Source of the DNA: a candidate division FCPU426 bacterium
GTDB lineage: Bacteria; Oederibacteriota; PGYV01; Palsa-1178
Direction: 5' to 3'
DNA length: 64,000 nt
NCBI GenBank assembly: GCA_963840035.1
Contig: CAWIXE010000001.1
Coordinates: 192,001-256,000 of the forward strand
Positions 3,303 through 43,745 of the stretch are shown piece after piece (position 1 is the stretch's first letter; every line of letters begins with the position of its first letter). Under the pieces are notes generated by a model that had not been told where the DNA came from, ran no database searches, and worked only from the letters and a program-made list of their open reading frames with translations. The translations under genes were made by a program, and so were the position numbers.

Positions 3303-3531
3303 GTAGTCGCAGGCCTGCGTCCCACCGGCATATGTCATGAGCTCAATAATATTCTCATGCCATATACTTGTCGAATGGCCTGCGCCTACATAAGGCATTC
3401 CCAACCTCAAACCTCCGACAGCCCCTCGAGGGTGTCAATGGTAAGCCCGCAGGCAATCTTCAAATAGGCGCACCCCGGTGAAACGAATCCGTCTTCGCTA
3501 AAGCTATGACGGACATATGGGGGTGCGACTA
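3303..3531. repeat. GTAGTCGCA-family REPIN carrying two micro-inserts
   Basis: gtagtcgcaggcc...ggggtgcgacta; homologous copies at 8799, 16212, 19070, 20629 and 22128, partial copies at about 6461 and 26489. Confidence 0.85.
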
Positions 3532-16211: not shown

Positions 16212-16443
16212 CGCAGCCGCAAGCCTGCGTCCCACCGGCATATGTCATGAGCTCAATAATATTCTCATGCCATATACTTATCGAATGGCGTGTGCCTATT
16301 AAAGGTATCCCCCCTCAAACCGCCGACAGTCCCTGTGACGGCATATCAATGGTTTCGCGCAAGGGCAAACGTCGAATAGGCGCACCCCGCTGATACGAAT
16401 CCGTCTTCGCTCAAGCTATGACGGACATATGGGGTGCGGCTGC
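16212..16443. repeat. GTAGTCGCA-family REPIN with both micro-inserts
   Basis: Homologous to 3303-3531. Confidence 0.8.
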
Positions 16444-16474: not shown

Positions 16475-17350
16475 TTATCTTCTTTTTCTTATCAGCTTGA
16501 TCGGACCGGCAAGAAATTCCTCAATGACCTCAGCGACGTTAGACAATTTTTCAGGCGCGATTTTGATATTGTTCTTATTCAGAAAAACCCGCCAGAGTTT
16601 CTTCATGCCGGACCCTTGGTCGTATATTTCTTCCGCGAAAATTTTTTTACCTTCAGGCAAACCTGTTTTCCTGTGTTCAAATGTCCTTTCAAGCGCCTTT
16701 GCCAGCTGTTCCGGTTTGAAATCAAATTTACGTATCAGAAGCCATACGTCATAAAAATCCTTCATCCTGCTGTTTAAAGCGCCGAGTTTAATCATCGCCT
16801 CAAATTTTTCTGCTATCACAGTTTCAGGCGGGTATCCTTTCAGCTTCGGCGCCGGGAAATCAAGGAAAACAGGGTAATCTATTTCACCGGGTTCCGGATA
16901 TACAATATCGCCAAATCCAAAATCTACCTGCAAAGGTATGCGCGTACGTTCTATAAATCCGGTAAACCTGACCCGGATACCCGAATAATCGTCGTTTTCT
17001 TTTATCTTTGCCGCTTTTAATGTATGTGTGTAAAAAACTATCCCGTCGTCGCCGGTTTTTATGGCGCAAATTTCCTTTACAACCCCGGTTATTTCTTCAA
17101 TTGTATTGCCGTAACACCCGAGAAAATCAACGTCCAGGGTCTTCCTTCTGCCTGCAACATTCCAGGCTGAAAACATAAGCGCGCCTTTTAAGATAAACTT
17201 TCCGCTGTATTTCGACTTGCTGAACCTGTATAGAAATCTTTCAATGCCATAATACTGCAGAATCTCGGCATAGGGGGTTTTTGTTTTTTCCGCTATGTTA
17301 AGCAGCCTTACCTTGACAGACTCCGGCATGTTCACAACGGGCTTTTTCAC
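16475..17350 (-). CDS. abiEii: AbiEii/AbiGii nucleotidyltransferase toxin (type IV TA)
   Basis: ERFLYR..ILKGALM..R.TLDVDF; AEKFEAM..NSRMKDFYD. Confidence 0.9.
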   Translation of the reverse strand: MKKPVVNMPESVKVRLLNIAEKTKTPYAEILQYYGIERFLYRFSKSKYSGKFILKGALMFSAWNVAGRRKTLDVDFLGCYGNTIEEITGVVKEICAIKTGDDGIVFYTHTLKAAKIKENDDYSGIRVRFTGFIERTRIPLQVDFGFGDIVYPEPGEIDYPVFLDFPAPKLKGYPPETVIAEKFEAMIKLGALNSRMKDFYDVWLLIRKFDFKPEQLAKALERTFEHRKTGLPEGKKIFAEEIYDQGSGMKKLWRVFLNKNNIKIAPEKLSNVAEVIEEFLAGPIKLIRKRR

Positions 17351-17949
17351 ATTATCGCCTCCAGCACCGGTTTTACCAGCCTGTCAACCCTGCATATTTT
17401 CGCGTATTTAAGTATTTCCGCCGGTTTTATCCCTTTATCCAGTACGGCTGTTTTAAGCGCCGCCCTTGCCGTGTCCTCTCCTATCTTGTTCCTGAATTTA
17501 TAACAATCCGCGACTGTTTTCGCAAGGCTGTATATCCGTATTTTCCGGCCGTCAATATCATGCTCCTCGATCCCCGCTCCCCAAGCCGCGGGTGAAAATC
17601 TGTAAAATTTTACGGGAGGGTGCTTAATTTTTATCGAAAACGCGCTTTTTTTTATCGCCACATCCACATGCGCCGGAACATCAAGCGTTGCCTCGTAATA
17701 ATACAGCGCCGATATGAGGCATATTACACCGTCCGGCGCTTTAATAGAGACTATGGTAAGATCGGGATTTGTAAGCGTATTTTTTCCGGGCAGGCTGTAC
17801 AGGGCTCTGTCACTTTTCTTAATCTGTTTATTTTTTATCCCGGACCTTATATATGATTTATCAAACCCGGCTTTTATTATCTCCGCATATCCGGCAACAC
17901 CGCCTTTTTCTCTTATAAATTTAATCAGCCTTGCTTCTTTATCGCTCAT
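17347..17949 (-). CDS. abiEi: AbiEi-family antitoxin / transcriptional regulator
   Basis: GVICLISALYYY..IYSLAKTVADCYKFRNKIG; 4-bp overlap with the toxin gene. Confidence 0.88.
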   Translation of the reverse strand: MSDKEARLIKFIREKGGVAGYAEIIKAGFDKSYIRSGIKNKQIKKSDRALYSLPGKNTLTNPDLTIVSIKAPDGVICLISALYYYEATLDVPAHVDVAIKKSAFSIKIKHPPVKFYRFSPAAWGAGIEEHDIDGRKIRIYSLAKTVADCYKFRNKIGEDTARAALKTAVLDKGIKPAEILKYAKICRVDRLVKPVLEAIM

Positions 17950-18031: not shown

Positions 18032-18110
18032 GTAGAGCCGCCACCGTTCGATACGCATATATCGTGAGTTTATTATAGAGTTCACGGCATATGCAATCAG
18101 CGGCTCTACA
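18032..18110. repeat. GTAGAGCCG REP with 48-bp micro-insert
   Basis: gtagagccgc..insert..gcggctctac. Confidence 0.75.
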
Positions 18111-39408: not shown

Positions 39409-40619
39409 GGTAAGTTGCAAGTTTTAATGCACCACTCCCTGAATCCCACACATTTTTCTTGTAGCATTTTGAATTATCATGTCGTTGGCTGTTTTGTATC
39501 CAAATATCCCTCTGGGATAGTTGTTTATCCAATTTTGGGCCTTTTTTACCGTTTCTACAGACACTTCCCCTATATCCGTCCCTTTAGGTACGAACCGCCT
39601 TATTATGCGGTTTGTATTCTCGTTGGTTCCTCTTTCAAAAGAACTGAAAGGATGCGCGTAATATAGCATGGTCCTTTTTGTCCCTGGCTTTAATTTACTC
39701 TCTTCAAGGGTTCTCCAATCGAGAAACTCCGAACCGTTGTCTGCGGTTATCGTCTTGAATATCCTGGCAAACAAACCGCCATAAGTCCTTTCGAGTCCAG
39801 TCAACGCCTTGTCCACTTCTTCGACCTTGCAACAGTTCATCTTAATTATTATTTCCTGTCTTGTCATACGTTCGCTGATTGTCAGAAGACATGCTCTTGT
39901 CCATTTAATACCCTTAACAACATCTATCTCCCAGTGACCATACTCCGTTCTTTCGTTTGCCGCCTTTGGTCTTTCTTCTATGCTCTTGAAAAGCCTGCTT
40001 CTATTTACTTTTCCGACCTTCCGATACTTCTTTTTACGCCTTCCTCCATATACCAGTTCTGCTTCTCCAACACCTGCAAACACACCGGAATGTATATAAT
40101 TGTAAACTGTCTTTATGCACAGATATGTCTTAAACCCCAGCTTGGTTCGCATTATTTCGCCTATTACTGCTGCCGGCGAATACTTATCCTGCGTTATCTT
40201 CCGTTCTATATGCCTGCTTAGTTCGTGGTCAAACCCGATCTTTAACGGGCGTCCTTTGTTCTTTTGTTTTTCATCATAGTCCAGCTGTCCATGATCGGCC
40301 CTATATACCAATCTCTCTTTGAGTTCCCAATCCGTCTGTATTACAGAACCTCTTTTTATCTCACGATTTATCGTGCTTGGGTCTCTTCCAAGTTGTTCGG
40401 CTATCTCACGCCCAGTACACTTCTTATCGCGCAGAGCCTCAATCTGGTACCGTTCTTTTAAACTTAAATACTTGTTTTTCCTGTCCCTTGTGGTAATCTT
40501 GACTTGTCCCATCATTCACCTCGTGTTTTTTATGGTGTCTTCGCAAACAACATAATAACACAAGTGCTTGGTGGGACTTTTTATTTACTCAGATGGTGCA
40601 TTTCATCTTACACTTTTTA
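39409..40619 (-). mobile_element. IS30-family insertion sequence with 15-bp flanking direct repeat
   Basis: Imperfect 26-bp IRs ggtaagttgcaagttttaatgcacca / tggtgcatttcatcttacacttttta; cgcatgtgaagcctt at 39394-39408 and 40620-40634. Confidence 0.9.
39424..40515 (-). CDS. IS30-family DDE transposase
   Basis: IAEQLGRDPSTINREIKRG; GHWEID; TADNGSEF; ERGTNENTNRIIRRFVPKG; INNYPR. Confidence 0.95.
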   Translation of the reverse strand: MMGQVKITTRDRKNKYLSLKERYQIEALRDKKCTGREIAEQLGRDPSTINREIKRGSVIQTDWELKERLVYRADHGQLDYDEKQKNKGRPLKIGFDHELSRHIERKITQDKYSPAAVIGEIMRTKLGFKTYLCIKTVYNYIHSGVFAGVGEAELVYGGRRKKKYRKVGKVNRSRLFKSIEERPKAANERTEYGHWEIDVVKGIKWTRACLLTISERMTRQEIIIKMNCCKVEEVDKALTGLERTYGGLFARIFKTITADNGSEFLDWRTLEESKLKPGTKRTMLYYAHPFSSFERGTNENTNRIIRRFVPKGTDIGEVSVETVKKAQNWINNYPRGIFGYKTANDMIIQNATRKMCGIQGVVH

Positions 40620-43111: not shown

Positions 43112-43745
43112 CTGTAGGGGCGATTCACGAATCGCCCGCCTTTGTGAATGGTTATAATTCAACACAAACACGCCCCAGTTTTTTGTAGAGACAGAGCTTG
43201 CTCTGTCTCAGGGCCGGGTTTTGTGGTTTTAAATCATTCAACGTCTGAGACGCAGCCGTTCGATACGTATATGTCGTGAGTATATTATAGAGTTTTAAAT
43301 CATTCAACGTCTGAGACGCAGGCAAGCTGCGTCTCTACAAAAACATTAAACATAAACACGCCTCAGTTTTTTGTAGAGACAGAGCTTGCTCTGACTCAGG
43401 GCCGGGTTTTGTGGTTTTAAATCATTCAACGTCTGAGACGCAGCCGTTCGATACGTATATGTCGTGAGTATATTATAGAGCTCACGGCATATGCAAGCTG
43501 CGTCTCTACAAAAACATAAACACGCCCCCAGTTTTTTGTAGAGACAGAGCTTGCTCTGTCTCAGGGCCGGGTTTTGTGGTTTTAACTCATTCAGCGTCTG
43601 AGACGCAGCCGTTCGATACGTATATGTCGTGAGTATATTATAGAGCTCACGGCATATGCAAGCTGCGTCTCTACAAATATAAAAACACAACTCATGCCTT
43701 CGTTTTTTTTGTAGAGCCGCCGCTTGCTGCGGCTCAGGGCCGGAT
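43112..43745. repeat. REP plus tandem REPIN array (units at 43185, 43373, 43538; partial at 43711) with 48-bp micro-inserts
   Basis: gtagagacagagcttgctctgtctc ... gagacgca..tgcgtctctac repeated. Confidence 0.9.

Follow-up and report, generated by a model that had tools for sequence, protein, structure and literature searches.

Ssn with its NTS/SRM repeats combines small single-domain GIY-YIG genes, short oriented hairpins that flank these genes, and repeats dispersed far away from them (Chenal et al., 2025, PMC11893778). Placement of the nuclease in CDD cd10448 is a trait of that system's own. SsnA binds its hairpin in single-stranded form only, cleaving a few nt upstream (5') of it (PMC11893778). 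The study demonstrated cutting and merely suggested a mobile origin; the sections of it covered here describe cleavage and an effect on transformation, and not joining activity, insertion, nesting or entry into other repeats (PMC11893778). The CGTC/TGTC-tagged REPs have an 8-bp imperfect stem, a 5-nt loop, a TGTC tag and head-to-head dimers, and the insertion of REP dimers into other palindromes is mentioned for these families (Di Nocera et al., 2013, PMC3733652). That 2013 survey detected no dedicated transposase for CGTC-type repeats (PMC3733652). REP-targeting IS110/IS1111 elements and MITEPpu9 insert site-specifically into REPs and include non-autonomous derivatives (PMC12288879, PMC11208160). 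IS200/IS605 ends and the REP/RAYT systems have a hairpin near the end, cause no target duplication and probably use a single-strand route (PMC6006769). The hairpin class reported here is not described as entering REPs or as nesting in the literature searched, which lay mostly outside subscription papers.

The insert reported here was followed up from a window, the whole 64,000-nt stretch G000:C1:192001-256000, in a genome (G000) of 3.46 Mb in three contigs that is 98% complete and has 47% GC. BLAST, end patterns and a covariance model agree that the genome carries 20 full copies, of which 19 are distinct, along with three truncated copies. Five full copies and one truncated copy lie in the window, and the coordinates and sequences that the original prediction gave for them are correct (Table 1). 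The unit itself had been described as 48 bp with a flanking GC core. It is instead a 50-bp unit sharing at most one G with its target: filled alleles have 51 bases where empty alleles have one, a net insertion of 50 bp. The ends are fixed. On the REP strand the target is G|Y, and the element begins with Y and finishes with G. The second junction base is determined by the element on one side and by the target on the other. A G-T junction stands on the left in 2 of the 20 full copies and on the right in another count of 2/20; two copies begin with T within a G|C target, and two others sit at G|T junctions. Because only G is invariant, because these G|T junctions occur, and because all 11 empty alleles of one host (F) read G|T, there is no 2-bp core or target duplication at the 50-mer, just a 1-bp ambiguity.

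Table 1. Features of the insert, its parts and its host REPs in the window (position 1 is the first letter of the window).
Feature	Position	Strand	Remarks
Full 50-bp insert	43444..43493	- (hairpin strand minus)	in REP family A; boundary ambiguous by 1 bp (shared G)
Outer unit, 5' part: 6-nt leader, 4-nt stem arm, GAG	43481..43493	-	
Inner 25-nt piece: probable inverted, decayed leader and hairpin copy	43456..43480	+	first 13 nt pair with outer 5' part
Outer unit, 3' part: 5-nt loop, CGA, 4-nt stem arm	43444..43455	-	flush at junction
Sigma70-like site within insert	43448..43476	+	9/12 matches, 17-bp spacer
Identical full 50-bp copy, adjacent tandem unit	43609..43658	-	
Truncated copy, 37 nt	43256..43292	-	deletion joins it to following unit; REP there empty
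Full variant copy, host E	18044..18093	-	G|T junction; no empty allele of host E found
Full variant copy, host family C	3329..3378	+	loop and tail are best match to ordinary hairpin class
Full variant copy, decayed family C host	16239..16288	+	
Host GTAG REP, family A, split by insert	43435..43509	-	
Host GTAG REP, family A, second tandem unit	43600..43674	-	
Empty family A REP	43313..43338	-	variant with one extra C, same array
Empty family B REP	43711..43735	+	
Tandem BIME-like array of paired REPs	43185..43674	.	unit ~165 bp
Host E REP	18032..18109	.	GTAG heads at both ends
Host family C REP	3303..3389	+	GTAG heads at both ends
Decayed family C host REP	16213..16299	+	

The inverted arms of the insert are nearly fully paired (97.6% of the cells in 11 arm pairs, over the 19 distinct sequences), and one central position is mismatched in 18 of the 20 copies. 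The compensatory G-C/A-T change that had been noticed in the inverted repeat is borne out, with 13 A-T, 6 G-C and 1 G-T in the 20 copies (13 A-T and 5 G-C among the distinct sequences). When all genomic copies are aligned, as had been suggested, this is the one inverted-arm pair that changes on both sides, and a single covarying pair among related copies lends weak support to selection on structure. Two lone left ends at C1:461717 and C1:1105830 were considered as ends of long elements and rejected, both being truncated copies.

All 23 copies, full and truncated, lie inside GTAG-type hairpins, a few of which have decayed heads. These hairpins make up only 0.64% of the genome, yet house every copy, and the placement is therefore not due to chance. 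The GTAG tag at the hairpin foot is present in the hosts and absent from the insert. Several unrelated REPs serve as hosts, as had been claimed; the count of three families was too low, since families A, B, C, D (with a variant D2), E and F provide at least seven host/orientation contexts. Family B is the commonest host genome-wide, with eight filled REPs on one strand and one on the other. The latter, at C1:531047 outside the window, sits at the mirror position on the opposite strand and is the one clearly opposite insertion. Occurrence in both orientations thus holds for the genome, and not for the copies near 3330 and 16240 on which the claim was based; relative to the REP strand, these are oriented like the copies at 43 kb. 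The proposed comparison of target sites finds no sequence in common beyond G|Y; the targets resemble one another in where they lie, 3' of the hairpin tip.

Exact empty alleles are directly observed for all hosts except E, and number 16 for A (plus six with an extra C), 22 for B, 14 for C, 10 for D and 11 for F. The genome carries eight Y1 (RAYT-like) genes, and five of these lie in arrays of the GTAG REP family that belongs to them. All 18 REPs next to the RAYT genes of families A, C, D and F (6, 2, 2 and 8, respectively) are empty, and the RAYTs of these four host families have a mutual identity of only 28-49%. No family B REP was seen in the inspected 350-bp flanks of the eight Y1 genes. At three loci (L001, L002 and L006) long Y1 proteins with open frames of 324-335 aa are flanked by non-GTAG repeats, and one such repeat contains the hairpin of the class described below, inserted just upstream (C2:947121 and 940232). 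Another, different hairpin insert of 30 bp lies in a family B REP loop at G000:C1:716523.

The central claim of the original prediction, that the insert moves on its own, is upheld by these observations. Inserts only 1-2 nt apart occupy different hosts (A/B, B/C and B/D), and hosts A, B and C each contain more than one insert lineage; the insert tree, a rough one that rests on 50 columns, mixes hosts. Descent of all hosts from a single already-filled ancestor, which had been named as the outcome that would overturn the claim, is unlikely, because empty alleles far outnumber filled ones, the RAYT-side REPs are empty, and insert lineages are shared across divergent hosts. Copying and conversion do account for part of the copy number, since the insert distance is lower within hosts (4.9) than between them (7.8), tandem pairs are duplicated, and A, B and D share their site flanks. 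The two copies at 43 kb are tandem duplicates of a 165-bp unit rather than independent events, and C1:109375/111002 are likewise clear duplicates. The evidence supports the 50-mer as a real, lineage-confined mobile insert that moves independently. It was not found in 98 other genomes of the phylum, none of the same genus, among which the covariance model gave only five hits, all below 25 bits; a pattern search of 40 relatives found it in none. Its right-end pattern had no match in the viral or the metagenome collections, and plasmid sequences did not match the 50-mer and matched the 39-mer only weakly. No Rfam family matched in the window. Three soil sequencing runs from one study were too shallow to bridge any insert site, and polymorphism between strains was not seen.

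A search for other split REPs revealed a family of short inserts with the same terminal motif, and through it a wider hairpin class. Its common unit is a hairpin of 19-20 nt in which a four-base stem encloses, from 5' to 3', GAG, a loop of 5-6 nt and CGA; the 3' end of the hairpin is flush with the junction. Single hairpins with leaders of 3-7 nt occur in GTAG REPs as inserts of 22-26 bp. Head-to-head double hairpins of 38/39 bp occupy one G|C site of a different, non-GTAG repeat, for which 88 empty and 7 + 6 filled sites were found, and are inserted without duplication. The class also inserts into its own loop and at REP-free sites. Beyond this genome, a 17-nt hairpin pattern matches in 19 of the 98 other genomes of the phylum, some of these being chance matches within genes, and the hairpin lies inside GTAG REPs of one phage contig and of four kin genomes (G002, G005, G006 and G007). 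In its plain form the hairpin might already belong to one of the four families, CGTC-1 to CGTC-4, of the 2013 survey (PMC3733652). The 50-mer differs from CGTC/TGTC repeats in being a nested inverted dimer with fixed blunt ends within GTAG REPs, and the base corresponding to the TGTC tag varies in it. A 39-bp double-hairpin remnant at G000:C1:694617 links halves of two different GTAG REPs.

In the 50-mer, a 6-nt leader and a 19-nt N4-GAG-loop-CGA-N4' hairpin form the outer frame, and the variable stem pair of this hairpin is A-T in 11, G-C in 6, G-T in 1 and mismatched in 2 of the 20 copies, which are related. The inner 25-nt piece stands directly 3' of GAG and fits the plan of a nest in length, leader, arm and loop; its 3' half is decayed and CGA is missing from it in 20 of 20 copies. 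Nests of this kind are observed elsewhere. Among 412 loci there are seven inverted nests, and in five of these GAG is met at once by an inverted hairpin and then by the leader of that hairpin, the arrangement of the 50-mer (L136, L309, L334 twice, and L398, which had first come up as a weak match of the covariance model). No free 25-mer precursor was found, and none of three viral matches was convincing. The 50-mer is thus likely to be a nested dimer of the 19-nt GAG/CGA hairpin that has turned into a mobile unit in its own right, a well-supported origin that we infer rather than observe because the inner piece lacks CGA in all copies.

The hairpin class is associated with genes for small GIY-YIG nucleases. 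In a metagenome scan with a query alignment of 41 proteins, the best 80 of 568 relatives, drawn from 7 of 64 parts, represent the KGWSR clade of ~95-aa proteins, and a hairpin lies within 600 bp of the gene at 56 of these 80 loci, where shuffling gives an expectation of 1.0. Over 122 proteins, a hairpin accompanies 62 of the 90 that bear a [GR]W[ST] motif and none of the 32 that lack it. In a genome of the same family (G006), four tandem hairpins stand ahead of a 92-aa GIY-YIG gene (P0001). Loci of P0001-like proteins in the phylum and in phage contigs have a hairpin within 500 bp in 6 of 32 cases, compared with 21 of 1000 random windows of G000. A TGTCA leader is found in 45 of 191 hairpins beside nuclease genes. 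Viral GIY-YIG loci had a hairpin in 0 of 22 cases, and phage contigs with the hairpin showed no recurrent partner gene across 129 loci, 77 of them longer than 1 kb. No NCBIfam family scores above its cut-off for the KGWSR-clade nuclease, whose nearest solved relatives are the UPF0213 proteins 1zg2 and 1ywl. At three loci in kin genomes (L240 in G007, L241 in G002 and L247 in G079), small GIY-YIG genes follow right after what look by eye like tRNA 3' ends, and the hairpins begin at the CCA end.

Within G000 itself, which is 98% complete, the KGWSR clade was not found, and no nuclease gene stands beside any 50-mer; a hairpin next to a small single-domain GIY-YIG gene, as in Ssn/SRM, is thus a trait of the hairpin class and not of the 50-mer. 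The genome has an SsnA-type gene (C2:229096) amid repeats of a different type and a second nuclease gene that, by sequence likeness, appears to be of UPF0213 type. The 38/39-bp doubles are inserted in the repeat type that surrounds the SsnA-type gene, and a quick, weakly supported tree with many open forks places the SsnA-type protein amid those of the KGWSR clade. The published SRM pattern, in contrast, fits none of the 20 copies, 40-bp flanks included, and only 1 of the 80 KGWSR loci. On these gene neighbourhoods the hairpin class is likely partnered by the KGWSR GIY-YIG clade as a sister system of Ssn/SRM, adjacency here meaning association and not mobilisation.

We slightly favour a model in which the 50-bp insert is a nested hairpin dimer, placed at G|Y near the loop of GTAG REPs, that was mobilised by small Ssn-like GIY-YIG nucleases. 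One unit of leader plus hairpin would have landed, inverted, immediately behind the GAG of a second unit; the inner copy would then have lost CGA while its first 13 nt kept paired with the outer copy. In the resulting unit, the 3' end on each strand would be a hairpin foot. On ssDNA, as at a replication fork, the nuclease would nick such hairpin feet and the structurally similar REP hairpins, leaving it to host ligation or repair to join in the short piece bluntly at the nick. The unit would then have spread further by being carried along when REPs were copied or duplicated in tandem. Its mover may have been a KGWSR-type nuclease since lost from the genome or, less likely, the product of the resident SsnA-type gene. 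The upstream cut made by SsnA could explain the leaders of 3-7 nt, and would not by itself explain the flush 3' ends.

The main rival to the nuclease model is capture by the RAYT (HUH) enzymes of the host REPs, which would nick their REP and, in rejoining it, pick up a short single-stranded hairpin by its free end, making the insert a hitch-hiker on the REP machinery, whatever its origin. That all 50-mers lie in RAYT-type REPs (23/23 copies, in a genome where five of the eight Y1 genes have GTAG REP arrays) fits RAYT involvement too, and TnpA_REP is described as cutting and rejoining ssDNA (PMC6006769), a chemistry that gives no duplication. We nevertheless judge it unlikely: the hairpin class also enters non-GTAG repeats (13 filled sites), its own loop and REP-free sites, RAYTs as divergent as those of the four host families would each need the loop-side G|Y as their cleavage site, and the REPs next to these very genes are all empty. 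The insert further differs from REP/RAYT in lacking the GTAG tag, and from IS200/IS605 in lacking a conserved target tetranucleotide (the REP strand shows six different ones, the opposite strand several) and a hairpin-foot guide. Another history would need only one to three old insertions, followed by nothing but copying of filled REPs, recombination via the loop-side flank of A/B/D, and gene conversion. The ~8 nt that A, B and D have in common around the site, the duplicated tandem and neighbour pairs and the lower within-host distance all speak for such events, which explain part of the copy number; the host range is left unexplained, as usable homology to A/B/D is missing from family C, from E and F with their G|T sites and from the copy on the opposite strand, and C and A each hold two separate insert lineages. 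As a full account we find this history improbable.

Descent from a REP-targeting IS110/IS1111 element with a GC core, as a minimal non-autonomous derivative whose recombinase has since been lost, is largely refuted and strikes us as quite improbable, even though members of that group target REPs and have MITE-like derivatives (PMC12288879, PMC11208160). The arms of the insert, 13-14 bp long and 10 bp apart if the unit were circular, do lie in the 7-17 bp range of the sub-terminal inverted repeats of that group (PMC11208160); one of them reaches the terminus, and nesting explains them better. IS110/IS1111 elements have a DEDD recombinase, a common dinucleotide core and a need for a sequence-matched target, and the insert has none of these: no match to PF01548 or PF02371 was found in the 98%-complete genome, nor a TnpB domain, the core is not fixed, and target flanks are alike only in G|Y. 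The ends match the GAG/CGA hairpin class instead, and the end pattern gave no viral, no metagenome and 15 GTDB matches, none with the hairpin. Nine of these 15 were checked for ORFs, with no transposase among those listed, and two that were re-examined are chance matches in coding sequence. An autonomous partner with matching ends, for which a search had been proposed, did not appear either, as BLAST, end patterns and a single-arm profile found no longer element with the ends of the 50-mer in G000; the profile gave 61 matches, none seen by eye as a pair bracketing a gene. A portable sigma70 promoter or regulatory hairpin maintained by selection is very improbable. Eighteen of the 20 copies share the same -10-like hexamer although it is mostly unpaired, a conservation beyond what pairing explains, but the -35-like hexamer is the reverse of the CGA motif of the hairpin, a sense gene lies downstream of 6 of 20 copies compared with 16 of 38 empty A/B hosts, and there is no orientation bias. 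No effect of the insert on host genes is evident.

The genome has two tyrosine recombinase genes, one serine recombinase gene and one frameshifted match in a foreign-looking stretch; the frameshifted locus, the one recombinase locus inspected, showed no visible link to the insert. That stretch (G000:C3, ~13.8-17 kb, L039) is very high in GC, has many frameshifts and XerC-like and sigma-factor-like genes, and is probably foreign sequence joined in assembly. A reading of the insert as attC of an integron was rejected, with no integron integrase seen and the cut at the outer hairpin foot.

Donor, target and enzyme are all specified here, by filled alleles with exact empty counterparts, a defined site, several hosts unrelated to one another and a named clade of nucleases. 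If the nuclease is the mover, this would be a transposase-free insertion chemistry, with structure-guided, scar-free entry of short DNA into hairpins; if it is not, the insert remains a clear example of one repeat living as a parasite on other selfish repeats. A broader proposal, which we offer tentatively and with more doubt than confidence, is that such hairpins of 19-50 nt are the smallest self-defined mobile units of bacteria, that a GIY-YIG nuclease of ~95 residues pastes them bluntly, without a transposase, into repeat hairpins and their own loops, and that nesting makes new elements of fixed length. If so, pasting by nucleases would be the missing route for the multiplication of CGTC/Ssn-type repeats. 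Elsewhere in the window, positions 16475-17949 encode an AbiEii-type nucleotidyltransferase with an unannotated upstream partner, and positions 39424-40515 an HTH_38 protein of 363 aa.
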